Shown piece after piece: positions 3,026-34,599 of a stretch of 64,000 bases of DNA. The position numbers and the translations under genes are program-made. Position 1 is the stretch's first letter. Each line of letters starts with the position of its first letter. The DNA is taken from contig CAVVOD010000004.1 in assembly GCA_963749835.1 (NCBI GenBank), positions 361,061-425,060 on the forward strand, in the 5' to 3' direction. Under the pieces are notes generated by a model that saw only the letters and a list, made by a program, of their open reading frames with translations, ran no database searches and was not told the origin of the DNA. This DNA is from an uncultured Acidobacteriota bacterium (GTDB lineage: Bacteria; Acidobacteriota; Vicinamibacteria; Vicinamibacterales; 2-12-FULL-66-21).

Positions 3026-4135
3026 ATGCTGAACGTGCGCCGCATCCTTCACATCGACATGGACGCGTTCTACGCCTCGGTGGAGCAGCGCGACAAACCG
3101 GAGCTGCGCGGCCTGCCTGTTGCTGTCGGCGGATCGCCGGAACATCGCGGGGTCGTGGCGGCCGCGAGTTACGAGGCGCGGGCATTCGGCGTGTACTCAG
3201 CGATTCCGATGTCTCGGGCGGTGCGACTGTGCCCGTCACTCGTGATTGTCCGGCCTGATTTCGCGCGCTACAAGGCGGCGTCGCAGGCCGTGTTCGACAT
3301 CTTCCGGTCGGTCACGCCGCTGGTCGAACCGCTGTCGCTCGACGAGGCCTACCTCGACGTCACCGACAACGCGTGGGGGGAGCCGCTTGGCCGGACGGTC
3401 GCCGGCCGGCTGAAAGTGGAAATCCGCGCGGCAACCGGTCTCACAGCGTCGGCGGGGGTCGCGCCCAACAAGTTTCTCGCGAAGATCGCGTCGGGATGGA
3501 AGAAGCCGGACGGCCTGACCGTCATCCCACCTGGGCGTGTCGAACAATTCCTGCACAGGTTGCCGGTGGACGCGCTGTGGGGCGTGGGGCCCGTCACTGC
3601 AAAGCGGCTTCGGGAGCGCGGCATCGAACGTCTCGTGGACGTTCGCGCGATCGATGAGACGGTCCTCCGGGAGGCCGTCGGCAGTAACGCCGACTGGCTG
3701 CGTCAACTGGCCGCGGGCATCGACGATCGGCCGGTCGTGCCCAACCGCTCGGCAAAGTCGTCCGGCACCGAGAACACGTTTTCGGACGACCTGACCGACC
3801 TGTCGCAGATTCGCGCGGAGGTCGATGAAATGGCCCGGGGGGGCGCCGCCTGGCTCGAGCGAAGGACGCTGACCTGCCGGACGGTGACGATCAAAGTCCG
3901 GTACTCAGATTTCACGACGATCACGCGCAGCCATTCGACGGTGCCCTCGACGCGAGATCCCGACGACATCGCCGCACGAGCGGTGGCGCTCCTCGAACGC
4001 ACCGAGGCCGGCCAGCGCCCGGTGCGGCTTCTGGGTGTGAGCGTGCACAACCTGATCGATCCGTCTGGAGCGCCGGAAGAGGAAGTCGCCGCGCTGCCGC
4101 TGTTCGACAACAGCAGCGCGGATGAAGAGGACTAG
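3026..4135 (+). CDS. dinB: DNA polymerase IV (Y-family translesion polymerase)
   Basis: 369-aa ORF. ILHIDMDAFYASVEQRD.., ..SLDEAYLDVT.., ..ASAGVAPNKFLAKIAS.. are canonical DinB motifs. Confidence 0.95.
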   Translation: MLNVRRILHIDMDAFYASVEQRDKPELRGLPVAVGGSPEHRGVVAAASYEARAFGVYSAIPMSRAVRLCPSLVIVRPDFARYKAASQAVFDIFRSVTPLVEPLSLDEAYLDVTDNAWGEPLGRTVAGRLKVEIRAATGLTASAGVAPNKFLAKIASGWKKPDGLTVIPPGRVEQFLHRLPVDALWGVGPVTAKRLRERGIERLVDVRAIDETVLREAVGSNADWLRQLAAGIDDRPVVPNRSAKSSGTENTFSDDLTDLSQIRAEVDEMARGGAAWLERRTLTCRTVTIKVRYSDFTTITRSHSTVPSTRDPDDIAARAVALLERTEAGQRPVRLLGVSVHNLIDPSGAPEEEVAALPLFDNSSADEED

Positions 4136-5739
4136 AGCGCCGGAGTTTCCTTGCGCGTCCGGGCACGGGGCGCGCGCGGCTTCGCGGGACCCTTCCGCGC
4201 CTTCGTGGCCGCACCATCCGCAGACTTGCGCCTGCCCTCCGACGATGCCGACGGAGATTTTGCCTGGGTCTTCGACCCTGATGCCGTCTTGCGGCCGCCA
4301 CGGCTCCGGGTCCTCGCCGGGGCAGCAACGGGCTCGGGCTGCGGCTCGGCGTTCTCGACACCGTCGACGATCGGCGGTGCGGCGTTCATTTCCTGAACCA
4401 CGTCTCCCTCGACGACTTCCGTCTCGACGGCCGCGACCGTTGCGGACCACTCCTCCACGGGCGACTCGTCGATGGGCTGCGGCTCCGCCACGTTCCCGCG
4501 GTTGTCGTCCTCGTCGCCCGCCGCCTGGGGACGGTCGGCGGCCTGCATGATGTTGCCGGGGAACACCCGCATCACACCCTGGCGATCCCGCTCGATTCGG
4601 AACAGCCCCTCGCGCTGACACGCGCGCAGCAGGTCCACGAGGCTGGCGAACCCGAACTTCCGCTCGTCGAACGTCGAATCGATATTGCGAAGGAACTGCT
4701 TGGCCTGCCGGATGTACATCGGCCAGCGCGGGGGAGTCTGCGCCGACTGGAACAGCCGCCGAACTTCGCGGATGCCGTCGGCCGTCCGCGGTTCGGGCTC
4801 GCCGTTGACCGGCATCGCGTCCGCCTGGACGCCATCCGCCTGCTCTCGCTTTGGCTGCGGTTGCGAGTATTGCTGCGGGGCGCGAGGCTCGCGCGATTCA
4901 CGCGGCTCTTCCACCGATGCCACGACGCCGCTGCCCTCGGCGAGCTCGACGAGCACATTCCGGCCGGACTCACGGAGGACGACATGCCCTGCCGACGCCA
5001 GCTTCTGCGCGAAGTCACGGAAGCTGCCGGCGCCGTACGTCCGCTCGGAGAAGGTGGAATCGAGCTGCAGCAACGTGCTCTTCAGCAGACCCAGCTGCGG
5101 AGAGACCTCGCGATCGCTCAGCACCTTCAGCGCGCGTCGCACCAGCGGCACGGCCACTTCGATCGACGTCTGCGAGACGGGACCGGCCTGCCGTCCGCGA
5201 TCGGCCGGCGAGCGTCTCGAACCCACGAGGTTTTCGTAGGCGATGAACTCGTGACAATTGCGCTGCATGACCATGCTGGTGAACGCGCGGCCGCCCACCA
5301 CGAAGATCTGCTTGTCGTACTGCTTCAGCTTTTCGACGAGCGTGATGAAATCGCTGTCGCCGCCGACGATCACATACGCGTTGATGTGACCGTGGGTGAA
5401 CGCCATTTCGAGCGCGTCGAGCGCAAGGTTGATGTCGGCGCCGTTCTTGTCGCCGCCCGGTGTGAGGTTCCGCTGGACCAGTTTCGTCGCATGCTGCGTG
5501 AGCGACCGGCTGTAGTCCCCCGCGCGTGTCCAGTCGCCGTAGGCGATCTTCGAGACGACGTCGCCGCGCTCTTTGAGAGCCTCGAGGACGACGCCGATGT
5601 CGAACTGCACACCCAGTGTGCTCTTGACGCCGATTTCGATGTTGTCGAAGTCGATAAAAACCGCGATCTTCAGTCGTGTGTCTGCCAAAACGTTCTGTCT
5701 TCCCTTCCGTACAGCCGCGTCCAATCGCGGCCCGGCCAA
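4132..5739 (-). CDS. NYN (LabA/limkain-b1 type) domain protein with two OST-HTH/LOTUS domains and a basic low-complexity tail
   Basis: KIAVFIDFDNIE..AYGDW..GADINLALDALE..VIVGGDSDFITLVEKL is the NYN core. Two OST-HTH-like segments follow (..LGLLKSTLLQLDSTFSERTYGAGSFRDFA.. and ..IRQAKQFLRNIDSTFDERKFGFASLVDLL..). The C-terminus is K/R/P/A-rich. The listed start is TTG; a start nearer ~5688 is possible. Confidence 0.85.
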   Translation of the reverse strand: MAGPRLDAAVRKGRQNVLADTRLKIAVFIDFDNIEIGVKSTLGVQFDIGVVLEALKERGDVVSKIAYGDWTRAGDYSRSLTQHATKLVQRNLTPGGDKNGADINLALDALEMAFTHGHINAYVIVGGDSDFITLVEKLKQYDKQIFVVGGRAFTSMVMQRNCHEFIAYENLVGSRRSPADRGRQAGPVSQTSIEVAVPLVRRALKVLSDREVSPQLGLLKSTLLQLDSTFSERTYGAGSFRDFAQKLASAGHVVLRESGRNVLVELAEGSGVVASVEEPRESREPRAPQQYSQPQPKREQADGVQADAMPVNGEPEPRTADGIREVRRLFQSAQTPPRWPMYIRQAKQFLRNIDSTFDERKFGFASLVDLLRACQREGLFRIERDRQGVMRVFPGNIMQAADRPQAAGDEDDNRGNVAEPQPIDESPVEEWSATVAAVETEVVEGDVVQEMNAAPPIVDGVENAEPQPEPVAAPARTRSRGGRKTASGSKTQAKSPSASSEGRRKSADGAATKARKGPAKPRAPRARTRKETPAL

Positions 5740-5774
5740 ATGGGCCGTCCGTCTATTATGGACTCATTCGAGGT

Positions 5775-5989
5775 GATCGACTCGGGATCCGGGACTCGGG
5801 ACTGGGGATTCGTGGCCGAGCTGGACTGCCAGAGATCGAGCCCGAATCCCGAGTCCGGTCCTATCGAGTCCCGAATCCCGACTGACCGAGTCCCGAATCC
5901 CGACTGACCGAATCCCGAATCCCGACCGACCGAATCCCAAATCCCCACTGACCGATCCCGAGTCCCGAGTCCCGGATCCCGAGTCGATC
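5775..5989. repeat. composite hairpin element: 29-bp perfect terminal inverted repeats (5775-5803 / 5961-5989) enclosing 4 tandem 22-bp units (5866-5953) built from CCCGARY heptamers
   Basis: gatcgactcgggatccgggactcgggact is the exact reverse complement of agtcccgagtcccggatcccgagtcgatc. The units are gagtcccgaatcccgactgacc x2, gaatcccgaatcccgaccgacc and gaatcccaaatccccactgacc. Confidence 0.9.
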
Positions 5990-7235
5990 ATTTCTGCCGG
6001 ACGTCGAACGCCGTCACATTGTCCTGATCGCGGATGAAGAGCTTGCCGTTCGAGACGACGGGATGGCTCCATGTCGGCAGGCTGCCGGTTGGAATCTGGA
6101 AGCGGCCGTGCTCCCGGTATCCGGCCGGGCTGGCCTCGGCGAGGCCGACGACTCCCTGCTCACTGTAGAGGTACAGCCGGTCGTCCGCGAAGACCACGGA
6201 TCCCTTGCCCACGCTGCGATCTCGCCACGCGACCTCGCCGCTGTCGAACTTCATGGCGGTCAGGATCGCGTCGGAGAACCCATAGAGATGATCGCCGATG
6301 AGCACCGAGCTCGCGTGATGGTTCCGCATCTCGCGCGTGAAGTAGACCTGCTTCGCGTCGATGCGGCCGCTCCCCGGCGTCAGCTCGAGGAGCGCGGCCC
6401 CTGTGCTGTAGCCCGACGAGAGGAACACGTGGTTCCCACGGACAATCGGCGTCGCGATGTTGGCCGTGCGGTTGGCGACCTGGGTGTAACTCCACTGCAG
6501 CTTCCCGGTTTCGATGTCGATGCCGAGCGCCCGTTCACCGGTGAAATAGATGGCTTCTCGGATGCCTCCGGCTTCGTGGAGCACGGCCGACGAGTACCCG
6601 GGCTCATCCGCGAGGCTCTTCCAGATAAGGGAACCGTCCGTCTTCTTGAGCGCCACGATGGAGGCTCCCTGGCCTCCGGGGCTGACGAGGATCCGATCGC
6701 TCAACACCAGCGGCGATTCGCTGAGCCCCCACTGAATGTTCCGGCCACCGAACTTCTCCAGGACGTTGACCTTCCAGAACACCTTGCCCGTGGCGGACTC
6801 CACGGCCGCGAGATCACCGCTGGCGCCGAACACATACAGGCGGTCGCCGTCCACCGTCGGCGTGGCCCTTGGACCGTCGCCCCGATCATTTCCGAACTGG
6901 CGGCCGTGCGGGACCTCCCACAGCTTCTTACCGGTCGCGGAATCGAACGCCATCACATATTCGGTCCCACCTCGTGCGCCGAGGGTATACAGGCGCCCGT
7001 TGCCGGTCGCGAAGGATGAGTAGCCCGCGCCGGCGCCCGCGGCGCGCCACGCGACGGGAGGTCCGGTCTTTGGCCAGTCCTTGAGAAGGCCCTTCTCGAC
7101 CGACACGCCGTCCCGCTTTGCGCCCCGCCACTGGGGCCAGTCGTCCAGCGAACGGTTCGAAACCGCCGCCGGGAGGGAGAGCATGGCAATTACGGCCAGG
7201 GCAGGACCCGCCGAACGGCGAAAGCGTGAATTCAT
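5988..7235 (-). CDS. secreted PQQ-like / BamB-type beta-propeller repeat protein
   Basis: ORF 5988..7322. I prefer the internal ATG at 7235 (MNSRFRRSAGPALAVIAMLSLPAAVS signal peptide, GGAG about 8 nt upstream). Repeated ..W....G......P.v.dg.vy.. blades are typical of PQQ-like propellers. Confidence 0.85.
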   Translation of the reverse strand: MNSRFRRSAGPALAVIAMLSLPAAVSNRSLDDWPQWRGAKRDGVSVEKGLLKDWPKTGPPVAWRAAGAGAGYSSFATGNGRLYTLGARGGTEYVMAFDSATGKKLWEVPHGRQFGNDRGDGPRATPTVDGDRLYVFGASGDLAAVESATGKVFWKVNVLEKFGGRNIQWGLSESPLVLSDRILVSPGGQGASIVALKKTDGSLIWKSLADEPGYSSAVLHEAGGIREAIYFTGERALGIDIETGKLQWSYTQVANRTANIATPIVRGNHVFLSSGYSTGAALLELTPGSGRIDAKQVYFTREMRNHHASSVLIGDHLYGFSDAILTAMKFDSGEVAWRDRSVGKGSVVFADDRLYLYSEQGVVGLAEASPAGYREHGRFQIPTGSLPTWSHPVVSNGKLFIRDQDNVTAFDVRQK

Positions 7236-7330
7236 TGAGACGCTCCAGATTGCAAAGTTTAGCTTTGGACGCCGCCGGTCCGTGATCGGACTGTCCGGTG
7301 CTCGCGTTGCGGATGAGGACAATCGTTCCG

Positions 7331-8476
7331 CTATTGGACGATCTTGATTCCTCGCAGGTCGATACGCGTAACCGGGGCCTCTCCGTTTACCGGCGCCTGG
7401 TCCATTGCGTCAACCGCCGGCATGCCGTCGACGACCCGGCCGAACACCGTGTACTTGCCGTCGAGCGAGCTCGCGTTGCCGGTCACGATGAAGAAGGATG
7501 TCATCGCGCTTCCCGGGTCGTCGCCCCGCGCCATCGAGATGATGCCTTTCACGTGCTTCGTCTCGTTGAACTCCGGCTGAATCCTGCGGACGTACTTCTG
7601 CTGGCGCTCCGAGAGCGGTCCGCGCGTATTCAGCGCGCCCCCCTGGATGACGAAGCCACGCACGACGCGGTGGAAGGCGGTGCCGTCGAACACACCCGAC
7701 TGCGCGAGCCGGAGGAAATTGCGGACGTGCTCGGGTGCGAGATCCGGGAAGAATTCGATCGTGATCGGTCCAACGCTCGTATCGAGCACCGCGCGGTACC
7801 TGGCCAGTTCCGCTGCGGTCTCGGTCGAAAACGGGTCCGGCTCGGGTGGCGGCGTGTCGCGGATCGTCACCGACTCGATGACGATGCGTTCGGCGGGAAG
7901 TCCGTCGGCTGACGCGGGGGCCTCGGAAATTTTCTGCACGACGTCCATCCCCTCGAGCACGCGGCCGAAAACGGTGTACTTGCCATCGAGAGCGGGCTGG
8001 TCCGTCACGCAGACGAAGAACTGCGCGCCGCCGCTGTCCGGACGACTGGGCTGCAGGACCGCGGCGACCGCACCGCGCGTGGCGCGCTCGGCGTTCGGTT
8101 CCGCCGCGAGAATTCCGAGGCCGCCGGTCCCATACAGCTTCACCTTCGAGGGATCCCTGGACAGCGGATCTCCGCCCTGAACGATCGCAAGCCGGATGAC
8201 GCGGTGGAAGATCGTCCCGTTGAACGCGCGCTCGCGCGCGAGCTTGATGAAATAGCCGACATGATTCGGCGCGAGGTCCGGTCGCAGGGCGACGACGAAC
8301 ACACCGGCGGACGTCGTGACGACCGCCTGCTTGCCCGTCATCTCCGCCATGCTCAGCGTCGTCGTATACGGCGCCGCCGGCCTGGCTGGTTTCTGAGTGC
8401 CGCGCTGGAGGGCAGCGTCCGGCGCCGCAGCGAGGGCGGCGATGATCGGAAGGAGGAGCGGCGCGAGCATGGGCAT
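7331..8476 (-). CDS. secreted peptidylprolyl isomerase with two tandem cyclophilin domains
   Basis: 381 aa with a signal peptide. Two copies of the cyclophilin core are present (..FHRVIRLAIVQGGDP.. and ..FHRVVRGFVIQGG.., each followed by ..LDGKYTVFGRV..GMD.V..I). Confidence 0.9.
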   Translation of the reverse strand: MPMLAPLLLPIIAALAAAPDAALQRGTQKPARPAAPYTTTLSMAEMTGKQAVVTTSAGVFVVALRPDLAPNHVGYFIKLARERAFNGTIFHRVIRLAIVQGGDPLSRDPSKVKLYGTGGLGILAAEPNAERATRGAVAAVLQPSRPDSGGAQFFVCVTDQPALDGKYTVFGRVLEGMDVVQKISEAPASADGLPAERIVIESVTIRDTPPPEPDPFSTETAAELARYRAVLDTSVGPITIEFFPDLAPEHVRNFLRLAQSGVFDGTAFHRVVRGFVIQGGALNTRGPLSERQQKYVRRIQPEFNETKHVKGIISMARGDDPGSAMTSFFIVTGNASSLDGKYTVFGRVVDGMPAVDAMDQAPVNGEAPVTRIDLRGIKIVQ

Positions 8477-8502
8477 GCGCGAATTATACGGGGCGGGCAG
8501 TT

Positions 8503-8612
8503 CTCAGCTATTCAGCTCTCAGCTCTCAGCTCTCAGCTCTCAGCTATCAGATCTCAGCTCTCGGCTAACAGGCTTTTCCGGCGAGCCCCGGGCCCCGAAT
8601 CCCGAGTCCCGA
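8503..8612. repeat. tandem heptamer array (CTCAGCT)n, about 10 units (8503-8573), followed by a short CCCGARY run (8590-8612)
   Basis: tcagcta ttcagct ctcagct x4 atcagat ctcagct ctcggct, then ccccgaatcccgagtcccgaac. Read directly. Confidence 0.85.
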
Positions 8613-11885: not shown

Positions 11886-12233
11886 AAACACGGAGGCACG
11901 AAGACACGGAGTCCGGACGGAGGCCCCACGAAACGGGTGGTCGGGGCGCGCTCCGCGCGGTGCGGCGAGGACATCTCGCAAACACAAACTCCATCTCACT
12001 TACGGGGAGCTTGTGTTTGCGAGATCTCCTCGCTGCACTCGCCGGCCGAATGGCCGGCGCCCGACCACCCCGGACTCCCCGCAGTCCTATGGCGACAGCG
12101 ACAACAGCCACGGTTGGACACGGCCATCCTCCGAACGGCCCGTGCCTTCGGGTAACCCCCAATCTCTCCGTGCGTCCCCGTGTCTCAGTGGCTCCGTGGT
12201 GGAATTTTCCGTGCCCTCCGTCTCCTCCGTGCC
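11886..12233. mobile_element. MITE-like multi-hairpin element, copy D1 (CACGGAG-type inverted termini, central ~26-bp-stem hairpin 11966-12030)
   Basis: Left end is aacacggaggcacgaagacacggag. The right end ctctccgtgcgtccccgtgtctcagtggctccgtggtgg is the reverse complement of a sequence nearly identical to the left end of D2 (ccaccacggagtcactgagagcacggagacgcacggagag). Internal inverted pair: gggtggtcggggcgc / gcgcccgaccaccc. No ORF with protein character. Confidence 0.65.
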
Positions 12234-15200
12234 CTATCCCCCCGGCGCCACTGGGACAGGCGCCGGGTCGTACGCGAGGTTCGGCGCGAGCCAGCGCTCG
12301 ATGGTCTCGATGTCGGCATCCTTCCGCATGGCGTAGGACTCCACCTGATCCCGTGCAATCCGGCCGACGTTGAAGTACTTCGCCTCCGGATGTGAGAAGT
12401 ACAGCCCGCTCACCGAGGCCGCCGGCAGCATCGCAAAGCTCTCCGTCAGCGTGAGCCCCTGCCGGCCCGCGTCCAGCGCGTCGAACAGCTTGCCCTTCTC
12501 GGTGTGGTCCGGACACGCGGGATAGCCGTATGCCGGACGGATGCCACGATACTTCTCGGCGACGAGATCGTCGTTCGACAACTGTTCCTGGTCGCCGTAT
12601 CCCCAGTCCTTCCGCGCCTGCGCGTGGAGGTACTCCGCGAACGCCTCGGCGAGTCGGTCGGCCAGCGCCTTCACCATGATCGCGTTGTAGTCGTCGTGAT
12701 CCCGCTCGAAGCTCCGCGCCAGTTCGTCAGCGCCGAGTCCGGCCGTCACCGCGAACATCCCGATGTAGTCCGGCACGCCGGTGTCCAGCGGCGCGATGAA
12801 ATCCGCAAGCGATCGGTTCGGACGCTTGTCGGCAATCACTTCCTGCTGGCGCAGCATCGGCAGCCGCGTCAGCTCGACGCGACGCGTGTCGTCCGCGAAC
12901 ACGACGATGTCGTCGCCGACGCTGTTGGCGGGCCAGAAGCCATAGACACCACGGGCCGACAGCAGCTTCTCCTTGATGATCCGCTTGAGGAGTTCCTGCG
13001 CGTTCGCATACAGCTCGCGTGCGGCCGATCCGTAGGTCGGATGTTCCAGGATCGCGGGGAAGCGCCCCTTGAGCTCCCAGGCCGAGAAGAAGAACGTCCA
13101 GTCGATATACCTGGCAATATCCTCGAGCGCCACGTCATCCAGGTATCGGCGCCCGACGAACCACGGTGACGCAATGACGTGACCGTCCCAGTCGATCGTG
13201 AGGCGGTTCGCGCGCGCCTGCTCATACGTCAGCAGCGGTTTCTGCCGCCGCGTGGCGTAGCTCTCGCGAATCTCCGCCTGCGCCACACGGTTCACCCGGT
13301 CGAACTCCTCCCGCCTCTCGCCGATGACGCTTGACACCACGTCCACCGCCCGCGACGCGTCGAGCACGTGGATCACCGGGCCGGAGTATTCGTGCGCAAT
13401 CTTGACGGCCGTGTGCTGCCGGCTCGTCGTCGCTCCCCCAATCAGGAGCGGCGTCGTGAAGCCGCGGCGCTCCATCTCCCGCGCGACGAACGCCATCTCG
13501 TCGAGCGACGGCGTGATGAGCCCGCTCAGCCCGATGATGTCGGCCTTGTGTTCCACCGCCGCATCGAGGATCTTCGCCGCCGGGACCATCACCCCGAGGT
13601 CGATCACCTCGTAGTTGTTGCAGCCCAGCACGACCCCGACGATGTTCTTGCCGATATCGTGAACGTCTCCCTTCACCGTCGCCATCAGGACACGGCCCTG
13701 CGCCGACGCGGCGCCCGTGATGCGCTTACGCTCTTCCATGTACGGCAGCAGGTAGGCGACCGCCTTCTTCATCGCCCGCGCGCTCTTGACGACCTGCGGC
13801 AGGAACATCTTGCCCGCACCAAACAGATCGCCGACGACCTTCATCCCGTCCATCAGCGGGCCCTCGATGATGTGCAGCGGCTCTTCATACTTCTGCCGCG
13901 CCTCCTCGACGTCCACCTCGATGAAGTCCACGACGCCGTGCACGAGGGCGTGCGACAGCCTCGCCTCGACGGTGGCCTCGCGCCAGCCGAGATCGGCTTC
14001 CCGCTTCGTCCCGCTCCCCTTGACGCTGTCCGCGAACTGCACGAGCCGCTCCGTCGCGTCAGGACGACGGTTGAAGATGATGTCTTCGACGTGTTCCAGC
14101 AGGTCCTTCGGGATGTCTTCGTAGACGATCAGCTGTCCGGCGTTGACGATGCCCATGTCCATGCCGGCCTTGATGGCGTGATACAGGAACGCGGAATGGA
14201 TGGCCTCGCGGACGACGTCGTTGCCGCGGAACGAGAAGGACAGGTTGCTGACGCCGCCGCTGATCTTGGCCCCCGGACAGGTCGCCTTGATGATCTTCAG
14301 CGCCTCGATGTAGTTGACCGCATAGTTGTTGTGCTCCTCGAGCCCTGTCGCGATGGCGAGGATGTTCGGATCGAAAATGATGTCGGTCGGATCGAACCCC
14401 GCCTGCTGGATGAGGAGCGTGTAGGCGCGCTGGCAGATCTGCACCTTGCGCTCGACGGTGTCCGCCTGGCCTGTCTCGTCGAAGGCCATGACGACGACGC
14501 CGGCGCCGTACCGGCGGACCGTCCGCGCCTTGTGGAGGAAGTCCTCTTCCCCTTCCTTCAGGCTGATGGAGTTGACGACCCCCTTGCCCTGGACGCACTT
14601 GAGTCCGGCCTCGAGCACGGTCCACCGGGAGCTGTCGATCATCACCGGGACCCGCGCGATCTCCGGCTCCGTCGCGATGAAGTTCAGGAACGTCGTCATC
14701 GCCTGCTCGGAATCGAGCATGCCTTCGTCCATGTTGACGTCAATCATGTTGGCGCCGCCGCGCACCTGCTCGACCGCGACGCTGACGGCCTCGGTGTAGT
14801 TCCCGCTCTTGATCAGCCGCGCGAACTTCGCCGACCCCGTGACGTTGGTGCGCTCGCCAATCATCTGGAAGTTGCTCTCCGGACGGATCGTCAGCACTTC
14901 GAGCCCGGAGAACTGGGAATAGTGGACGGGATCGGGACTCGGGGCTCGAGACTCGGGATTCGGGGCTCGGGACTCGGGGCTCGGCTCGGATTCGGGACTC
15001 GGGATTCGCCCGCCCCCGCTCGCATCCACATCTGTGCGAGCTACGGCGAGGCCGCGCCGTAGCCGCGCCGCGGCGGAGGCGGGGGACTCGGGGCTCGCCG
15101 GATCGGGACTCGGCGACCCGGGCGCCGTAGCTTCCGCCTTCAGGCGGAAGGATGCTGCAGACACCCATGACGGCGACGGCAGCGGCCGCGGCGTCACGCG

Positions 15201-16190
15201 CTCGACGGCCCTGGCGATGGCCGCGATGTGTTCCGGCGTCGTGCCGCAGCAGCCCCCGAGAATGTTGGCGAAGCCGCTGGCGGCGAAATCCTCGAGCAGG
15301 ACGGCGGTTTCCTCGGGCTGCTCGTCGTACTCGCCGAACGCGTTCGGGAGCCCCGCGTTGGGATAGCTGCTGACGTAGCACTCGGATATCCGCGCGAGCT
15401 CCGCCATGTACGGCCGCATCTCGCGCGCACCGAGCGCGCAGTTGATGCCGACGCTGAACGGCTGCGCGTGCCGGATCGAGGTGTAGAACGCGTCCACTGT
15501 CTGGCCGGACAGGGTTCGGCCGCTCCGGTCCGTGATGGTGACCGAGATCATGACGGGCAGGCGCGTGCCCTTTTCCTCGAACACGTTCTCAATCGCGACG
15601 ATCGCGGCCTTGGCGCCCAGGGTGTCGAAGATGGTTTCGAGCAGGAGCAGGTCCGAGCCGCCGTCGATGAGGCCGCGGACCTGCACCTCGTAGGCCGCGC
15701 GCAGCTCGTCGAAGGTGATGGCGCGAAAGGCGGGGTTGTTGACGTCGGGTGAGATGGAGAGCGTGCGATTGGTCGGTCCGAGCGCGCCCGCGACAAAGCG
15801 CGGCCGGTCGGGCGTCCTGGCCGTCCAGGCGTCGGCCGCCTCGCGCGCAAGCCGCGCCCCTTCGACGTTGATCTCGTACGCGAACGGCTCCAGCTCGTAG
15901 TCGGCCTGTGCCACCGCGGTGCCGCCGAACGTATTGGTCTCGATGATGTCGGCGCCGGCCGCGAGGTACTCGAGGTGAATCGCGCTGATCACATCCGGGC
16001 GCGTCAGGACGAGGATGTCGCTGTCCCCCTTCAGATCCCGGGGATGCGTGGCGAACCGTTCGCCGCGGAAGTCCGCCTCCGTCAGTTTCGCGCGCTGGAT
16101 CATCGTGCCCATGGCGCCGTCGAGAATGAGGACGCGGCGTTCGAGGAGAGAGCGAAGCGTGTCGACGGCAGGACTCTTCATACTGGTCAT
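12234..16190 (-). CDS. metH: cobalamin-dependent methionine synthase
   Basis: 1318 aa. All MetH modules are recognisable: Hcy-binding (..[20 protein letters not shown]), pterin-binding (..GERTNVTGS..), B12-binding (..[13 protein letters not shown]..) and the AdoMet activation domain (..[12 protein letters not shown]..). About 90 aa longer than the 1227-aa E. coli enzyme because of the linker insertion annotated separately. Confidence 0.97.
14926..15172 (-). repeat. intergenic-type repeat cassette (heptamer run + GCGAGCTACGGCG + CTTCCGCC-TGAA-GGCGGAAG-CTACGG hairpin) embedded in-frame in metH
   Basis: + strand 14928-15008 reads gggatcgggactcggggctcgagactcgggattcggggctcgggactcggggctcggctcggattcgggactcgggattcg. 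Position 15044 has gcgagctacggcg, and 15125-15150 carries the hairpin module. It is translated as ..[86 protein letters not shown].. Confidence 0.85.
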
Positions 16191-17300: not shown

Positions 17301-17373
17301 GGTCAGCTCTCAGGTCTCAGCTGTGAGCCATTGGTATCGGAGCTGAAAGCTGAGTGCTGAGAGCTGAGAGACC
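17301..17373. repeat. inverted pair of GAGAGCT-family heptamer runs forming an imperfect hairpin
   Basis: ggtcagctctcaggtctcagctgtgagcc .. ggagctgaaagctgagtgctgagagctgagagacc. It lies between the M13 peptidase stop and the SahR-like start. Confidence 0.75.
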
Positions 17374-17379
17374 GCGCGG

Positions 17380-19422
17380 TTACCAGACCCGGCAGACGGG
17401 TTGATTCACCATGGGCGAGCCGCTCGGGCAGGCGAAGGCCTTCTGGAACTCGGGGAAGTTCGACACCACGCCGTTCACGCGATACCGGCCCGGAGCGTGG
17501 GGGTTCGTGGTCGCGTACACGCGTGCGATTTCGTCGGTCTTGTTCTCGCACCACATCTGACCCCAGCCGATGAAGAACCGCTGCTCGGGTGAGAACCCGT
17601 CGGCCTGGCCGAGCGGCCTGGTGGCCAGCCTGTCCATCAGCGCCATCCAGCCCAGCCTGAGCCCGCCGTTGTCGGCGGCGTTCTCGCCCAGCGTCAGCTT
17701 GCCGTTGATCTTGACGTCGGCGACGGCGGTATAGCCCGAATACTGATTGGCGATGCAGGCGGCGCGCTCTTCGAATGCCTTCGCGTCGGCGGGCGTCCAC
17801 CAGTCGCGGAGGTTGCCCGACGCATCGAACTGGCGCCCCTGGTCGTCGAAGCCGTGGGTGAGCTCGTGCCCGACGACCGCCCCCGCGGCCCCGAAATTCA
17901 CCGCATCGTCGGCCGAGTTGTTGAAGAAGGGAGGCTGCAGGATGCCGGCCGGAAAGTTGATGTTGTTCTCGAGCGGGTTGTAGTACGCGTTCACCGTCGG
18001 CGGGGTCATCAGCCACTCGGTCTTGTCCACGGGCTTTCCGATCTTTCCCAGCTGCCGGGCGAACTCGAACGTGTTGGCCCGCTGCGAGTTGCCGAGCGCA
18101 TCACCGCGCACGATGCTGAGCGCCGAGTAGTCGCGCCACTTGTCGGGGTACCCGATCTTGTTGGCGACGGCCTTCAGCTTCTCGGCCGCCTGCTTTTTGG
18201 TGGCCTCGGACATCCACTCGACGCCGACGATGTCCCGGCCCATCGCCTGTTCGATGGCCTCGACCATCTCGAGCGTGCGGGCTTTCCCCTCGGCTCCAAA
18301 CGCCTGCGCGATGTAGGCCTGGCCGACGACCTCGCCGAGATCGCCGTTCGTGTAATCGACGCAGCGCTTCCAGCGGGGGCGCTGCTCCTTCGCGCCGGTG
18401 AGCGTGCGAGTAAATGCGAAGTTCTCCTCGACGAACGGCTTCGGCAGGAATTCGGCGTTGCCGTTCACCAGGTGCCAGCGCAGATACGTCTGCATGTCGC
18501 CAAGCGGGGTCGACGAGACGATCTGGTTGACCGCGCGCATGAACTCCGGCTCGCTCACGTTGATCGCGCTCACGGCTCCGGCCTGCACCTCCCGCAGATA
18601 GGCCGTCCAGTCGAAGGCCGGCGTGAGGGCTCGGAGCTCGTCGACGGGCATCTTGTGATAGACGTTGGCAGGCGTCCGGCGGCTCACGCGGTCGAGGGCG
18701 GCTTTGGCGAGCGCGGTCTCGATGCGCATGACGGCCTGGGCGCCGGCGTCCGCCTGGGCGGGCGCATCACCGGCGAGGCGAAGCACGCGGCCGACGTGCG
18801 CCACGTATTCCAGCTTCACCTTCTGTGAGCTCGCGTCCTCCTTCAGGTAGTAGTCGCGATCCGGCAGCCCCATGCCACCCTGCGCGAGGCCGGCAATCAC
18901 CGATGACGCATCCTTGAAATCCGGCGTGGACCCGAACCCGAAGAGGACGCCGGTTCCCTTTCGATGGAGTGCGGCGACAACCGGGGGCAGGTCAGCCGCG
19001 CTTCGGAGCGCCGCAATGCGATCGAAATCCTCCTTGAGTGGCGCCAGTCCCTTTGCCGCGATGCCGCTCTCGTCCATGCAGCTCGCGTAGTACGCGCCAA
19101 TCTTCGCCGTGTCACCATCGGCGCGCGACGAGGCGGCTGTTTCGAGAATCTGGTGGAGGATTTCGTTGTTGCGTTCCTGCAGCTCGTTGAAGCGGCCGTA
19201 GTTGGACTGGTCCGCGGGCAGCGGATGCTTCGTCATCCAGCCGCCGCACGCGAAGCGATAGAAATCGGTGCAGGCGTCCGCCGTGCGATCCATCGCCTCC
19301 GGATCGATGCCGGACACGCTGGAAGGAGCACCGGGTTGCTTCTGCGGTGCGGACGCGCGCTGAGCCGCGGCAGGCACGATTGCGAGTGCAATCAGGACGA
19401 GCGGGACAACTGTTTTTCGCAT
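17380..19422 (-). CDS. M13 family metallopeptidase (PepO / endothelin-converting-enzyme-like), secreted
   Basis: The track ORF extends to 19710. I prefer ATG 19422 (MRKTVVPLVLIALAIVPAAAQ signal peptide). Motifs: zinc motif VVGHELTHGFD and ENAADNGGL. Confidence 0.92.
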   Translation of the reverse strand: MRKTVVPLVLIALAIVPAAAQRASAPQKQPGAPSSVSGIDPEAMDRTADACTDFYRFACGGWMTKHPLPADQSNYGRFNELQERNNEILHQILETAASSRADGDTAKIGAYYASCMDESGIAAKGLAPLKEDFDRIAALRSAADLPPVVAALHRKGTGVLFGFGSTPDFKDASSVIAGLAQGGMGLPDRDYYLKEDASSQKVKLEYVAHVGRVLRLAGDAPAQADAGAQAVMRIETALAKAALDRVSRRTPANVYHKMPVDELRALTPAFDWTAYLREVQAGAVSAINVSEPEFMRAVNQIVSSTPLGDMQTYLRWHLVNGNAEFLPKPFVEENFAFTRTLTGAKEQRPRWKRCVDYTNGDLGEVVGQAYIAQAFGAEGKARTLEMVEAIEQAMGRDIVGVEWMSEATKKQAAEKLKAVANKIGYPDKWRDYSALSIVRGDALGNSQRANTFEFARQLGKIGKPVDKTEWLMTPPTVNAYYNPLENNINFPAGILQPPFFNNSADDAVNFGAAGAVVGHELTHGFDDQGRQFDASGNLRDWWTPADAKAFEERAACIANQYSGYTAVADVKINGKLTLGENAADNGGLRLGWMALMDRLATRPLGQADGFSPEQRFFIGWGQMWCENKTDEIARVYATTNPHAPGRYRVNGVVSNFPEFQKAFACPSGSPMVNQPVCRVW

Positions 19423-19448
19423 CTGGTGCTTTCTGGAAAGGCGAACGC

Positions 19449-22076
19449 CTACAACCCGGTCGGCAATGCGGCGGCGCGCCGCGCCCTGAGCCACTCGGTC
19501 AGCTTCGCGGGTTGCGTGGCGGCAAGCGAGGAGCACTCGTTGATCCGCTCGACCGCCTGCTGGAGTGTCCGCGTGGCATCCGGCACCTTGTGAAGGGTGA
19601 AGAACTGCTTCACGTTCACGGCTGTCCGCGCGTCGCAGAACGTGCCGAGCGCGGCAATCACCTGAGTATTGCCCCCGAACTGGCCGGTTTTCTTCTGCAC
19701 CTGCGCCCATCGTTCACGGAGGAGCGGCCAGGCGAGTTTCCGCGCGTCAGGGTTGCCCAGCAGATTCGCCAGGAAGACCTTGGCGTCCTGGCTGCGCACA
19801 TCCGGCCCGACGATGTAATCGATCGTCCTGCGCACCAGGGCGGGATCGGTGAAGCCGGCGAGCCCGTACAAATAGCGATAGTGCTCTTCGGGGTCCGTCG
19901 CGGCTTTGCTACGCTCGACATACTTGGCGTACAGCGCGGCGTCACCACGCCGGGCCGCCACTCTGACAGCGGCGTTCAGCAGGGTCGGCTCGACGGTGCC
20001 TGGTTTCGCAAGCTCCTCGAGGACCAGGCTGCGCGCCTTCGCGACGACGGCAGGATCGCCGGCGGCCTCGCCCAGTACCGAGACGAGCGACGCGCGAAGC
20101 GCGCGGGTCTCGTCGCTATCGGAGGCACCGGACGACCATCCGACCCGTTCGAGTGCCGGCCCCAGCAGCGAGCTGACCCACGCACTGTACGCCGGCCGCG
20201 AGCCGGGCGTGGTCAGGTTGTCGCCGATGGTTCCCAGCGAGGCCACCAGTGTGGCGACGACCGCCGCGTCCCGCTCCCCTTTGAATCCAGCGGCGAGGTC
20301 CATGAAGGAGCTGACATCATGCCGTCCCTGGAGCACAAGTGCCCACTCGTCGTCGAGGAGCGAGATCCGCTCGCCGGGCGTCAGTGACGTGATGCCTGCC
20401 GCAAGCTTCGGAAGCATCGCCGGCGGATTCACGACACGGTAATAGCCCCGCGCCCCTGCGTTGGCCATCACATATGCGGGGCACGACTCCAGCGGCACAT
20501 CCAGGGGCTCCTCGCCGACGACCTCGCATGCCGTCTTCCCGTCTGGCGTCTTTATGCAGACCGGAATGTCCCATGTGCGCGGCGGGGCGACGCGGCGGGG
20601 CCCCGAGGCGCCGGTCGGCGCCGTCTCCTGACTGACCGTCGCTGTGCCACGGCCGTCAGCGCACTTGACCGTCGCATCCACCATCGGCACGCCGGGCCGA
20701 TCCACGAAGCCGGCCATCACGCGATCGACGGGCTTCCCGGTGCTCGTCGCCAGCGTGCCCCAGAAGTCCTCTGCGGCGGCATTGCCGTACTTGAACCGTT
20801 CGATGTAGGCGTTGACGCCGGTCCTGAACGCCTCTTCGCCGACCCATGCCTCGATCATCCGGAGCACGGCTGCCCCTTTTCGTACGCGATCGCGTCGAAG
20901 AGCTCGCCGATCTCGTCGGGAGTCGATGCGCTGGTACGGATCGCGCGGGTCGTCTCGAGAGAGTCGAGCGCCATCGCTTTCTGGTTCGACTGAACCTCCT
21001 CGAGCTCCATGTTCCACTCGGGCTTCCATGCCTTGACCGGCTTGCTCGCCATCCACGTGGCGAACCCTTCGTTCAGCCAGATGTCGTCCCACCACCGCAT
21101 CGTCACGAGATCGCCGAACCACTGGTGGGCCATTTCGTGGGCGAGCACGCTGGCGATGTTCTTGCGGACCCTGACCGACGCGCCTTTCGGATCGGCGAGG
21201 AGGAGCGTCTCGCGGTAGAAGATCGCGGCGGTGTTCTCCATCGCTCCCGCGGCAAAGTCCGGGACGGCAACGATGTCGAGCTTCTTGAACGGATACTTCA
21301 CGGTGTAGTAGCGGTTGTAGTACCCGCAGGATCTCGGCGGCCGCCTCGAGCGCCAGGCCGGTCTGCCCCTTCTTGTCCGGTGTGGAGCAGATGCGAATCG
21401 GGATCCCGTCGGCGCTGCGTGACGAGCATTCGAAGTCCCCGACCGCCAGCGCCAGCAGGTACGTCGACATCTTCGGCGTGGTCTCGAATGTGACCGTGTG
21501 CTTCCCCGGCTTCGGGCTCGGCGTGTCGGACACGATCGCGCCGTTCGAGATCGCGTGGTCTCCCGTGTCGATCGTGGCGCTCAGCGCGAACGTCGCCTTG
21601 AACGCGGGCTCGTCGAACGACGGAAACATGCGTCGCGCGTCGGTCGCCTCGAGCTGCGTCACTGCGTAGCGGCGATTGTTGGCCTTGCTGAGATACAGCC
21701 CGCGCAACTGGTTGTTCAGGATGCCGGTGTATTTCACGGCGATCTCGGCGCGCCCCGCGGCAATGACCTGCGGCACCGTGAAGGTGGCCTGTTCGCGCTT
21801 CGGGTCCAGCGTGACGCGGGCGGTCTGCGTGCTGCCGCCGGCAGCGATGGTGACCGTGTCGAATGTGATCTCCGCAGCGTTCAGGGTGATCGTCCGCGAA
21901 GGCTTCTCGAGCGTCACGGTAATCCGCTCGGTGGCCGTAAAACTCGCCGCCGGGAGGTTCGGCTCGACGGCGATCTCGTAGTGCTCCGGGACGACGTTGC
22001 CAGGGAGCCGCTGGGCACGGGCGGGGGAGGCGAAGAGGATCAGCGCGGCACTGAGGACCAGAGGAAATTTACTCAT
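19449..22076 (-). pseudogene. pepN: M1 family aminopeptidase N, disrupted by two compensating 1-nt frameshifts (or sequencing errors) that scramble the catalytic core
   Basis: Begins MSKFPLVLSAALILFASPARAQ at ~22076 inside the 1401-aa track ORF. The catalytic segment ([22 protein letters not shown]) is only readable in another frame (track ORF 20855..21301). Frame switches are at ~21324-21326 (extra G: ctgcggGtactac) and ~20873-20876 (one G missing: gaaaagggg^cagcc, expected [10 protein letters not shown]). Confidence 0.85.
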
Positions 22077-22761: not shown

Positions 22762-22890
22762 CGGGAGCTACGGCGGGGCCAGGCCCCATTTCGGGATTCG
22801 GGACTCGGGACTCGGGGTTCGGAAATGCGGAAGCTGGAAGCCGGAAGCTGGAAGCCGGAAGCTGGAAGCTGGCAGCTGACAGCTGATGTC
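22762..22890. repeat. spacer holding three abutting heptamer families plus GGGAGCTACGGCGG and a GGGGCC-A-GGCCCC palindrome
   Basis: gggattc gggactc gggactc ggggttc, then cggaagc tggaagc x6, then tggcagc tgacagc tgatgtc. Read directly; all have a 7-nt period. Confidence 0.9.
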
Positions 22891-22898
22891 TGCCCCTG

Positions 22899-23555
22899 AT
22901 GTCTGAGTCTGACCTTCGCCTCATCGCTGCGACGACCCATGGCCGCGTCCTGGTGCGCGACGCGCGGGCGGCCGCCGCGCGGGGAGTCCTCGTGGGGTTC
23001 CATGGCTACATGGAACAGGCGGTCATCCAGATGGAGCGGCTGCAGGCGATTCCCGGAGCCGCGCGGTGGACGCTCGTGTCCATCCAGGCGCTCCACCGGT
23101 TCTACCGGGGGCGCAGCGAAGAGGTCGTGGCAAGCTGGATGACGAGCCAGGATCGCGAGGCCGCCATCGCCGACAACATCGAGTACGTCGATGCGGCGCT
23201 CGACACGGTCCCCCACGATGCGTCCACGAAGATCGTCTTTGCGGGTTTCTCGCAAGGCGTGGCCATGGCCTTCCGGGCCGCGGTCAGAGGACGTCGTCCC
23301 GCCGCGGGCGTCATTGCGGTTGGCGGCGACGTGCCGCCGGAACTGCTGCTGGATCAGGACGCGGCGTTCCCGTTCGTGCTGCTCGCACGGGGCGCGCGCG
23401 ACGAGTGGCTCACCGCACAGAAGTTCAGAGCGGACCTGAACGCTCTCGCGGAGCGCACGCCTGGACCGAGAGTTCGCGCCGTCGAATTCGAGGGCGGACA
23501 TGAATGGAACGACGCCGTGGCCGAGGCGGCGGGGGATTTTCTCGAGTCCGTCTAG
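22899..23555 (+). CDS. phospholipase/carboxylesterase-type alpha/beta hydrolase
   Basis: 218 aa. ..VLVGFHGY.., nucleophile elbow ..FAGFSQGVAMA.., C-terminal ..GGHEW. Confidence 0.8.
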   Translation: MSESDLRLIAATTHGRVLVRDARAAAARGVLVGFHGYMEQAVIQMERLQAIPGAARWTLVSIQALHRFYRGRSEEVVASWMTSQDREAAIADNIEYVDAALDTVPHDASTKIVFAGFSQGVAMAFRAAVRGRRPAAGVIAVGGDVPPELLLDQDAAFPFVLLARGARDEWLTAQKFRADLNALAERTPGPRVRAVEFEGGHEWNDAVAEAAGDFLESV

Positions 23556-23754
23556 TGTCCTGACCGCGTGGATCGTGCATAAGTCCCGGAGCGCGGCGCC
23601 CGGCTGGCTAGGCGCGACGACCGAGAATACTGGCCGTATTTGAGGGAGGAGCAACGCCGCCAGGCCGGGGCCCCCGCCGCGCGTGTTTTGCGCGGTGGGG
23701 TGGAGAAGGGATGCCCCGCCCGGGAATTATGTCGCGAACCACGCGGTCAGGACA

Positions 23755-24279
23755 CTAAGTCTCCGTCCTGGTCGCTGTGTTCGTGTTCGTCCCGGTGTCC
23801 GTCTTCGTTTCCGGCTTACTGCTCGGGGCTCCGGCCTTCCTCCTGTGCCGCACGCCGGCTTCTTCGACAGAGTGTGACTGCGTCAACGTGACATCGCGAG
23901 CCGCCATCGTCACGAGCTTGTGATAGTGCCGGCGAAGCAGGTTGAGCTCGTCCTCAGAAAGTGACTCCACTTCGATCAGGCGGTTGCTCGCGCCGTCCAG
24001 CGCGGCGACGATCTCGTTCAGCTTCAGGTGAATCGCGAGCGAGTCCTTGTTCTGCGAGCGCTGGATCAGGAACACCATCAGGAACGTCACGATGGTCGTG
24101 CCGGTGTTGATAATCAGCTGCCAGGTGTCCGAATATCCGAAGAGCGGTCCGGTGATCAGCCAGATGAGGATGGTGGCTGCTGCGATTGCGAACGCGGAGG
24201 TGCCGCCGGTCCAGTGCGTAACGCTCGTCGCGAGCCGCTCCAGCCCGCGGCCGAAAGAGTTGTGTGGTTTTCGCCCCAT
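23755..24279 (-). CDS. low-affinity iron permease family membrane protein
   Basis: I prefer the start at MGRKPHNSF (24279). ..HWTGGTSAFAIAAATILIWLITGPLFGYSDTWQLIINTGTTIVTFLMVFLIQRSQNKD..LHLKLNEI.. matches the family signature. Confidence 0.8.
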   Translation of the reverse strand: MGRKPHNSFGRGLERLATSVTHWTGGTSAFAIAAATILIWLITGPLFGYSDTWQLIINTGTTIVTFLMVFLIQRSQNKDSLAIHLKLNEIVAALDGASNRLIEVESLSEDELNLLRRHYHKLVTMAARDVTLTQSHSVEEAGVRHRRKAGAPSSKPETKTDTGTNTNTATRTET

Positions 24280-33605: not shown

Positions 33606-33648
33606 GAGAAGAGACTCCTGTTTCGATGATGTCTGGGAGATGCCCGGC

Positions 33649-33692
33649 CGCCGTAGCTCGCACCGATCAGCGAACGGAGGCGAGCGAATCCC
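33649..33692. repeat. short repeat module: CGCCGTAGCTCGC (reverse of GCGAGCTACGGCG) plus GAATCCC x2
   Basis: ccgccgtagctcgcaccgatcagcgaacggaggcgagcgaatcccgaatcccg, read directly. Confidence 0.7.
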
Positions 33693-33702
33693 GAATCCCG
33701 TC

Positions 33703-34599
33703 CTAACGGAACAATCGGTCGAAATTGTCGCCGAAGATGAGCGCCCTGTCGGCGTCGGCGAGACCCGCTGCGCGCACCGCAGCATCCTGCGCCGCATACA
33801 CAGGCTCCAGCCATCCCCGTGGGAAGAACGACGAGTCCGTCCCGAAGACGACGCGCTCGGCTCCGACGACGGCGACGGCATGCTGGAACACGGCTTCGAG
33901 CGTCAGGCCCGGATGGTATTTCAACCACCGGTTCGAGCTGGAGGTATCCAGGTGGATGTTCGGGCACTGGTCCGCCGCCATGAGCACTTCGCGGAAGAGC
34001 CCCGCGCCGAAGTGCGGCACGATGACGGGGACATTCGGGAACCGTGCGGCGGTCGCGGCCAGCGCGAGCGGATCGCCCAGGCGCATGTCGAACGGCGAGA
34101 GCAGGCCCAGCTTCTTCCTGATACCCACGCTCAGCACGCCGCAGTGCGCGAACACCACCGCGCCGCCGGCCTGCGCCGCGGCAAAGACATCCCGCACGCG
34201 CTCGTCGTCCAGCCGGTACCCGTGCATCGCGGGGAAGAGGCAGACTCCGCTGAGGCCCTGCTCGCCGAGGACGCGCGACAGCCGGGTCCGCACATCTCCC
34301 TGCAGAGGGTTGAACATGAAGAAGCCGATGAACCTCGTGGGGTGCCTGCGGACGGCGGCGAAGACCGACTCTTCGTCGCCGGCGATGCTTCCAATCAGAG
34401 CGACCTTCGAAACGTTGTGCCTGTCCAGTTCGGCGACCCAGCGGTCAGCCAGCTCCTCGATTGTGCCCGGATCGTTCCATCCCACGCGGTGCGATACTGC
34501 GGTTGCGCGGCCGGTGTCCGGCAAGTCGCGAATGCCCTGAGTCAGCAGTTCGAGGAACCGGGACGAGAACAAGTGGCAATGAACGTCGCACAGGCGCAT
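33703..34599 (-). CDS. amidohydrolase family protein (Amidohydro_2 / TIM-barrel metal-dependent hydrolase)
   Basis: I prefer the start MRLCDVHCHLF (34599), which carries the HxH metal motif. ..VVFAHCG.. and ..VFGTDSSFFPRGW.. Confidence 0.8.
   Translation of the reverse strand: MRLCDVHCHLFSSRFLELLTQGIRDLPDTGRATAVSHRVGWNDPGTIEELADRWVAELDRHNVSKVALIGSIAGDEESVFAAVRRHPTRFIGFFMFNPLQGDVRTRLSRVLGEQGLSGVCLFPAMHGYRLDDERVRDVFAAAQAGGAVVFAHCGVLSVGIRKKLGLLSPFDMRLGDPLALAATAARFPNVPVIVPHFGAGLFREVLMAADQCPNIHLDTSSSNRWLKYHPGLTLEAVFQHAVAVVGAERVVFGTDSSFFPRGWLEPVYAAQDAAVRAAGLADADRALIFGDNFDRLFR

Follow-up and report, generated by a model that had tools for sequence, protein, structure and literature searches.

The spacer described here lies between two genes on the minus strand of a 64,000-nt stretch of DNA from an uncultured Acidobacteriota bacterium (Vicinamibacterales). 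The whole stretch is called the window, all coordinates are positions within it, and only these 64 kb of the source genome were searched. The upstream gene encodes a PQQ_2/BamB-like beta-propeller and the downstream gene a nuclease with NYN and LOTUS domains (NYN-LOTUS). Between them is a repeat element of 217 bp (5774-5990) which extends from the stop codon of the propeller gene to 14 nt before a -10-like box of the NYN-LOTUS gene. The anatomy given in an earlier note on this DNA is right: inverted repeats at both ends, tandem units inside and no coding capacity. More precisely, the element is a 5-unit array of the GGGAYYC type facing about 20 complementary heptamers, the two together filling the spacer. 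The features of the locus, in the order in which the genes are read, are as follows.

5988-7322, minus strand: upstream gene, PQQ_2/BamB-like beta-propeller; the element begins inside its stop codon.
5961-5990, minus strand: stop-proximal arm of the perfect 30-bp repeat; G-rich in mRNA sense (GGGAUCC GGGACUC GGGACUC...) and holding the TGA stop codon (5990-5988).
5842-5982: long array complementary to the short one; a 22-nt higher-order unit repeated 6.5 times, GGGAYUC-rich in mRNA sense.
5813-5841: unique non-repeat core TGGCCGAGCTGGACTGCCAGAGATCGAGC; 29 nt, folding as a small inner hairpin.
5779-5812: short heptamer array; GACTCGG x 4.9 on the plus strand.
5774-5803, minus strand: perfect 30-bp repeat, arm nearer the promoter; rich in C when read in mRNA sense, with pairing on to 5809 with one mismatch.
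5755-5760, minus strand: -10-like hexamer CATAAT, within GAATGAGTCCATAATAG; conserved.
5686-5708, minus strand: Shine-Dalgarno-like GGAAGGGAAG (5708-5699) and TTG start codon (5688-5686) of the NYN-LOTUS gene; conserved in orthologues.
4132-5688, minus strand: downstream gene, NYN nuclease domain and OST-HTH/LOTUS domain (bacterial MARF1-like).

Sequence comparison agrees with the earlier description of 5775-5803 and 5961-5989 as exact reverse complements of 29 bp. The perfect repeat is, however, one base longer in the outward direction, giving 30 bp (5774-5803 / 5961-5990), and with one mismatch it reaches 36 bp (5774-5809 / 5955-5990). Similarly, the four 22-nt units noted at 5866-5953 are present but belong to a longer array, for which Tandem Repeats Finder gave the limits 5842-5982, a period of 22, 6.5 copies, 82% matches and a sub-period of 7 nt. 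Each 22-mer is made of two heptamers and one octamer (CCGARTC CCGARTC CCGACYGA, 7+7+8 nt). Among the copies at 5866-5953 the first and second are identical, the third differs at 2 positions and the fourth at 4. The left arm is itself a heptamer array of 4.9 units (5779-5812). Heptamer units found in the element are GGGATTC, GGGACTC, GGGATCC and GGGGATT; an exact GGGAATC unit is absent from both strands of the element sequence. The GGGAYTC-type dimer GGGAYTCGGGRYTC occurs 10 times inside the element when up to one mismatch is allowed, and the sense strand of the whole element carries 14 GGG tracts.

The earlier note missed that the element is one of many heptamer arrays in the window. Tandem Repeats Finder returned 20 rows with period 7 for the window, and the arrays compared with gene calls were all intergenic except one within the metH open reading frame (ORF). 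The dimer GGGAYTCGGGRYTC, again with up to one mismatch, gave 32 matches at about 11 sites in the window where 0.43 were expected. A second heptamer family without G-tracts (TGAGAGC / AGCTGAG / CAGCTCT / GAGCTGA / GGAAGCT) occupies at least four spacers besides the GGGAYTC sites, with up to 10 units. The class was then described in 1.78 Mb of Vicinamibacterales DNA consisting of the window and 160 related loci. Arrays of period 7 numbered 154 in this set, as against 7 of period 6 and 33 of period 8. Using gene calls that are GC3-based and crude (78% coding, about 22% of the DNA intergenic), 122 of the 154 (79%) were intergenic. Where a second array lay nearby, defined as within 300 nt with a gap of at least 15 nt, it was inverted in 43 cases (28% of 154) and direct in 2; the reverse-sequence control gave 1. 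The longest perfect arms among the inverted pairs form a continuum of 30 (the element at 5774-5990), 25, 25, 24 and 21 bp. In co-directional spacers 24 of 61 arrays were found within 15 nt of the upstream stop codon although 8.3 were expected, a number reached in 0 of 5000 permutations. Of the 30 hairpin elements, the majority begin no more than about 25 nt from a stop codon, and by spacer type they comprised 13 co-directional, 8 convergent and 3 divergent cases. A gradient from perfect outer to degenerate inner pairing was considered as a rule for inverted pairs and rejected, the inner part being the better paired in one relative (L015). Sibling elements and second-family arrays in the window are listed below.

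60633-60752, plus strand: (GGGGAYY)n array, short loop and complementary array; 46-nt arms at 89%, with 25 bp perfect; the gene at 59570-60622 has its stop codon 10 nt before the start of the element.
48547-48644, plus strand: TCGGGAT array and inverted CCCGAAY array around the palindrome CTTCCGGCTAAAGCCGGAAG, which resembles repetitive extragenic palindromic (REP) sequences.
17303-17370, minus strand: built from the second heptamer family as inverted arrays of TCAGCTC and GAGCTGA; the gene at 17380-19710 stops 9 nt before it.
2873-2930, 8498-8566, 17303-17370 and 22829-22886: arrays of the second family, two of them in divergent promoter regions.

Relatives of the locus were compared through the flanking genes. 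The NYN protein has matches in metagenome-assembled genomes (MAGs) of Acidobacteriota / Vicinamibacterales at up to about 87% identity, and metagenomes scanned for anything closer to the NYN gene gave nothing above about 82% identity. Exact matches to the propeller protein, with either of two start choices, and to the cyclophilin were not on record. The cyclophilin-PQQ-NYN synteny is kept in about 27 loci, and in these Vicinamibacterales relatives the PQQ-NYN spacer varies from 8 to 590 nt. In the comparison of orthologous spacers proposed in the earlier note, eight spacers are short but others hold different arrays, with the nearest relative at about 87% identity in the flanking protein. This closest relative (L013) is among the eight and has just a GGG-rich seed, GTTCGGGGCCGGGCATTCGG. 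About 10 orthologous spacers contain heptamer-like arrays of other units, including GGTTCTA (L015), GGTTCAA-type inverted pairs (L020, L055), GAATCCT (L009, L052) and CCAGCTK (L008, L033, L066), the last being related to the second family of the window. Strong hairpins of unrelated sequence are found in the spacers of L022, L030, L039 and L043. Different heptamer arrays occupy the same orthologous spacer, a pattern of turnover in place and not of one conserved or inserted element. The promoter-proximal CGGATCCCG units are common to the window, L009, L052 and L066, in the same place. Judged from these shared units, the short array, C-rich in the sense strand, is probably the older and the long G-rich array probably a lineage-specific addition.

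Folding of RNA and DNA, which the earlier note had also proposed, gave structure far beyond chance on both strands. The RNA of the minus strand, which is the mRNA sense, folded at -146.8 kcal/mol (z = -6.4) and that of the plus strand at -128.6 kcal/mol (z = -6.3). The corresponding values for single-stranded DNA were -62.5 kcal/mol (z = -5.4) for the minus and -61.9 kcal/mol (z = -7.3) for the plus strand. In each of the four cases 0 of 200 shuffles was as good. The sense RNA fold shows the outer 36-bp stem prolonged by G.U-wobble pairing among the GGGAYUC repeats. Rfam covariance models at the gathering threshold gave 0 matches in the whole window. Hairpin-plus-T-run terminator-like sites were not enriched in positions 1-60000 of the window (24 found, about 32 expected from shuffles), suggesting that terminators of the canonical intrinsic type play a small part in this organism.

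We consider it very probable that the element is an inverted heptamer microsatellite formed in place and not a mobile element. No insertion would be needed for its origin; it would have grown by replication slippage, heptamers first and then three-unit blocks of 22 nt, and the divergence gradient of 0, 2 and 4 differences among the 22-mers supports slippage growth at both the 7-nt and the 22-nt level. An intrastrand template switch, as in quasi-palindrome 'correction', may then have copied one end of the array onto the other, and we propose that the 30-bp arms are perfect because this switch was recent. Template switching, or else selection for hairpins, would fit both the orientation bias of 43:2 and the continuous range of arm lengths. 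The element would be transcribed as the 3' end of the cyclophilin-PQQ message and would there form a long stem, 36 bp at its base and continued by G.U-rich GGGAYUC pairing. If transcribed, it could act as a passive 3' barrier, by analogy with enterobacterial REP sequences and bacterial interspersed mosaic elements (BIMEs), shielding the upstream mRNA from 3' exonucleases. The barrier would also damp read-through into the NYN-LOTUS gene, which would be served by its own promoter. Selection on this copy is probably weak, and the class may persist because slippage regenerates the arrays while hairpins after stop codons are tolerated or mildly useful. This whole account, from growth in place through slippage and template switching to the action at the 3' end, is in our judgement probable; the barrier role is put forward tentatively, as a possibility somewhat short of probable.

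A number of observations weigh against this account. No function was found for comparable arrays of Xanthomonas and Nostoc (Rehm et al. 2015, PLoS One, PMC4692102). Eight orthologues have spacers of 8-55 nt without repeat or hairpin, which speaks against a dedicated function. The stem is not followed by a U-tract, its tail being ACCUCGAAUGAGUCC, and a consensus scan of 5400-6400 found no terminator-like site, so that any termination must be of a kind other than the canonical intrinsic one; the outer stem encloses 145 nt, a poor terminator geometry. Across the class the sense strand is G-rich and C-rich equally often (28:28) and about one-fifth of the intergenic arrays lie between divergent genes, which argues against a strand-specific RNA role and would fit the absence of any function. 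The recurrence of a few heptamer families at many sites in one genome is unexplained by random slippage alone. Finally, the recent origin, with copy-number polymorphism, is something that we infer, since the search was limited to 64 kb of the source genome and no relative closer than about 87% protein identity was found.

Some alternatives concern the origin of the element. The earlier note called the element MITE-like, that is, similar to a miniature inverted-repeat transposable element (MITE) or another non-autonomous transposable element, inserted between the genes and with the 30-bp arms as the terminal inverted repeats (TIRs) bound by a transposase. Perfect terminal repeats, a size of 217 bp and the lack of coding capacity are as expected for such an element, short 'empty' spacers exist in some relatives, and in the window heptamer arrays and REP-like palindromes stand in frame in the MetH linker, much as mobile palindromic elements sit in frame inside proteins in Rickettsia. 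However, no target-site duplication was found, nor any direct repeat of 2 nt or more at either boundary, where the flanks read ...cattcgagg before the T that opens the element and tttctgccg after the A that closes it (or ...gaggt and atttc). Searched with up to 5 substitutions, the window holds the 29-mer at no other place. With up to 3 mismatches, core (29 nt) and terminus (19 nt) matched the element itself only, and the 29-mer gave 0 matches in 160 related loci, 241 million metagenome records and viral contigs. Neither arms nor core thus had a second copy in any collection searched. The arms are plain heptamer units, as in the sibling hairpins whose arms differ in sequence, and relatives carry different arrays at the same site, so that the 'empty sites' are better explained by rapid turnover in place. 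With no duplication, no copies and microsatellite arms in the collections and the 64 kb of source genome searched, the mobile-element reading was rejected as very improbable. A mosaic family of the REP, BIME or REPIN type (REPINs being REP sequences in hairpin-forming pairs), dispersed by a REP-associated tyrosine transposase (RAYT) and using heptamer arrays as a module, would account for the same two heptamer families at many sites. It would also account for the palindrome CGTAGCTTCCGSCTWWAGSCGGAAG, which occurs three times in the window, each time beside GGGAYTC arrays, and in five related loci, and for GAGCTACGGCG, found exactly three times in the window beside arrays. The element at 5774-5990, though, holds neither the palindrome nor GAGCTACGGCG, its core is without a second copy in the window and unit sequences differ between species at the same site; no RAYT gene turned up, none having been searched for. 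We regard this dispersal as improbable. The least credible alternative is an assembly artefact, in which a fold-back chimera had formed or repeats had been collapsed or expanded. Assemblies typically go wrong at perfect inverted repeats and in tandem arrays, and the relatives are MAGs only, but both flanks are colinear with the conserved cyclophilin-PQQ-NYN synteny, the stop codon and promoter motif stand exactly at the positions of the orthologues, and similar elements occur elsewhere in the window and in independently assembled genomes.

Other alternatives leave the origin aside and assign the element a definite function. The earlier note suggested a stable terminator or insulator; its position fits, the U-tract is missing, and the suggestion stays plausible. 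In its stronger form, a lineage without the canonical hairpin-plus-U signal would use long GC-rich hairpins at stop codons, built from inverted heptamer arrays, as factor-independent terminators or insulators under selection. The clustering of arrays at stop codons, the 43 inverted against 2 direct second arrays, the 21 of 24 hairpin elements in co-directional or convergent spacers (3 of 24 in divergent ones), the lack of enrichment of canonical terminator-like sites and the probable separate promoter of the downstream gene are all in its favour, and a strong hairpin of one unrelated sequence or another is present in most orthologous spacers of more than 100 nt. On the other hand the U-tract is absent, the eight short orthologous spacers do without a hairpin, the excess by spacer type lacks statistical significance when compared with a baseline of about 80%, and arrays might lie next to stop codons simply because the promoter-proximal half of spacers is constrained. 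We consider this selected form rather unlikely, while giving it appreciable weight. A regulatory G-quadruplex (G4) element has much less to recommend it. On this reading the G-rich sense strand would form quadruplexes as RNA or as non-template DNA that regulate expression, and might be a ligand of the NYN-LOTUS nuclease. The GGGANTN heptamers of Xanthomonas and Nostoc do form G4 in vitro (PMC4692102), and binding to G-rich and G4 RNA is a property of LOTUS domains, among them one of a bacterial NYN-LOTUS protein (PMC7498356). The G-rich strand is the sense strand at the element and at five other stop-proximal sites of the window (6 of 7 stop-proximal GGGAYTC arrays), and phased GGG runs in the window number 6 with four units and 3 with three. 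Against this, the canonical pattern (G3N1-7 x 4) is found once in the element, as four GGG tracts spaced 4 nt apart in the arm at 5961-5990, and this arm is perfectly paired with the C-rich one. No strand bias is seen in the class, and G-richness of the sense strand was rejected as a class feature on the 28:28 count. Many arrays consist of units without G-tracts, such as AGCTGAG. The spacers beside orthologous NYN-LOTUS genes carry C-rich or GG-only units, so the adjacency of element and NYN-LOTUS gene is most likely coincidental. A G4 function for the element therefore appears improbable, and slightly more so than dispersal by a RAYT. Both functions could be combined, the inverted heptamer arrays of Vicinamibacterales being a self-generating substitute for intrinsic terminators and their G-rich repeat RNAs substrates or ligands of NYN-LOTUS proteins. 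New long hairpins would then arise all the time at stop codons through slippage and template switching. This would give heptameric simple sequence repeats both a function and a trans-acting partner, but we think it little more probable than the G4 element by itself. The inverted microsatellite formed in place, perhaps acting as a passive barrier, remains the explanation that we prefer.

The flanking genes required some correction. The earlier note had the right arm overlapping the stop codon of the propeller gene by 2 nt; the overlap is real, its extent larger, as the whole TGA (5990-5988) lies within the 30-bp arm. The propeller gene and the cyclophilin gene (7331-8476) are likely to form an operon. 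The distance of about 35 nt given between left arm and NYN start holds for the longest ORF (start at 5739) and not for the start aligned with orthologues at 5688. The real start is probably the TTG at 5688, with the longest ORF 17 codons too long; in the orthologue alignment there is no conservation as coding upstream of the TTG. In many orthologues the alignment shows a [C/G]ATAAT box 41-66 nt upstream of the NYN start, and the CATAAT box is the probable promoter of the NYN-LOTUS gene. As a sigma-70 promoter consensus scan of the spacer gave nothing, this assignment depends on the conservation. The promoter-proximal arm of the element ends 14 nt upstream of the -10-like box and covers the -35 zone. 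The conserved promoter and leader, at 5686-5771 and in the orthologous loci, consist of GAATGAG-n-[C/G]ATAAT, a small GGCC...GGCC hairpin, a Shine-Dalgarno-like box AAGGGAAG and the TTG start. In ten relatives (L001, L002, L014, L029, L032, L034, L036, L037, L040, L042) the propeller gene is missing and cyclophilin stands directly before NYN-LOTUS, so this gene has been inserted or deleted variably in surroundings that are otherwise conserved.

Some further repeats of the window were recorded. The REP-like palindrome (CGTAG)CTTCCGSCTWWAGSCGGAAG(CTACG) is found at 15133-15148, 44033-44048 and 48579-48594, three times where 0.02 are expected, and in the related loci L001, L030, L043, L046 and L141. 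As each copy in the window adjoins GGGAYTC arrays, BIME-like mosaics of palindromes and heptamer arrays are suggested. The 11-mer GAGCTACGGCG (15038-15048, 22765-22775 and 33649-33659), each copy beside a GGGAYTC array, is probably a half-site of the same palindrome family. In MetH (1318 aa; ORF 12234-16190, minus strand) the segment 14927-15160 contains GGGACTC/GGGGCTC arrays, a CTACGGCG...CGCCGTAG hairpin and the REP-like palindrome, all in frame and translated. They lie in the linker between the homocysteine-binding and pterin-binding domains, which measures 285 nt in the window and 45-159 nt in 11 relatives; heptamer-derived peptides occur in this linker in several relatives, for example DPESDPESDPGSDPGS in L011. 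A hairpin element of about 120 nt has two copies, 11940-12060 and 35360-35480, with shared flanks (CGCGCTYCGCGCGG ... GCGCCGGCCRA-GGCCGGCGC), a conserved apex (ACACAAACTC ... GAGCTTGTGT), stems that differ in a compensatory way and no Rfam match; it is a candidate structured RNA or dispersed element. Between convergent genes there is an inverted repeat, 23553-23597 / 23713-23757, whose 45-nt arms are 76% complementary and 115 nt apart and whose outer 19 nt, TAGTGTCCTGACCGCGTGG, are perfect. A minus-strand gene ends at a TAG near 33705 (...FGDNFDRLFR followed by the stop), and 5 nt on comes GGGATTCGGGATTC (33685-33705). At least one gene call, 31914-33881, merges two genes, and the ORF of that extent, in another frame, is probably partly spurious.

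The results extend a known phenomenon to soil Acidobacteriota (Vicinamibacterales) and add regularities to it: a second array is nearly always inverted, arrays pile up at stop codons and an orthologous spacer is refilled with different heptamers. Arrays can also lengthen a protein linker in frame, as in MetH. These regularities constrain models of slippage with template switching and of a hairpin role at 3' ends. For annotation, a perfect TIR without an ORF should not be called a MITE in these genomes.

Among known systems, MITEs share with the element the terminal inverted repeats, small size and non-coding character; the element differs from them in that target-site duplications, further copies and related transposase ends are lacking and the arms consist of tandem heptamers. 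Intrinsic terminators, including the 'I-shaped' hairpin-only terminators reported for high-GC Actinobacteria, are alike in that a GC-rich stem directly follows the stop codon and is followed by the promoter of the next gene. They are unlike the element in that it has no U-tract, a 36-bp stem around 145 nt and numerous possible pairing registers. The closest model for the way in which the element might work is given by the REP, BIME and REPIN sequences of Proteobacteria, which are extragenic hairpin repeats after genes; REP sequences and BIMEs stabilise upstream mRNA and attenuate read-through. REP sequences are, however, copies of one conserved palindrome of 20-40 nt, whereas the element shares its core with no other site and has arms of microsatellite units.

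In many large, GC-rich bacterial genomes no long simple repeats are as over-represented as heptameric microsatellites. The arrays described here resemble the cyanobacterial short tandemly repeated repetitive (STRR) sequences and the TAACTGA repeats in being abundant intergenic tandem heptamers with few preferred sequences per genome. The TAACTGA heptamers of Beggiatoaceae, Cyanobacteria and Bacteroidetes are found immediately before start codons and hardly ever in inverted form, with 169 direct sets and 1 indirect (MacGregor 2015, PMC4679880), whereas the present arrays favour stop codons and 28% are in inverted pairs. A search of one literature collection for heptamer or tandem repeats in Acidobacteria or Vicinamibacter found no paper. 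The closest counterparts are the (GGGANTN)n repeats of Rehm et al. (PMC4692102), with GGGAATC in Xanthomonas and GGGGA(C/T)T in Nostoc. In Xanthomonas 89-93% of the arrays are intergenic, their mean distance from the upstream ORF is 28 nt, each genome has 70-75 convergent inverted pairs, sister species differ in their arrays and the repeats form G4 in vitro (PMC4692102). The GGGAYTC units of the element, and the GGGGAYY units at 60633, fit GGGANTN (tandem, at least two units). The intergenic bias, the closeness to the 3' end of the upstream ORF, the frequent inverted stem-loop pairs and the variation in length and sequence between related species at one locus are likewise shared. Differences are that the element fails the screening rule used for Xanthomonas, at least one exact GGGAATC unit; that it belongs to a different phylum; that it has the 22-nt (7+7+8) higher-order structure, the perfect 30-bp outer stem and a G-rich interior of 145 nt; that Vicinamibacterales add unit families without G-tracts (AGCTGAG, GGTTCAA and others); and that there is no class-wide strand bias relative to the upstream gene. 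The element is a member, in a new phylum, of this known kind of repeat.

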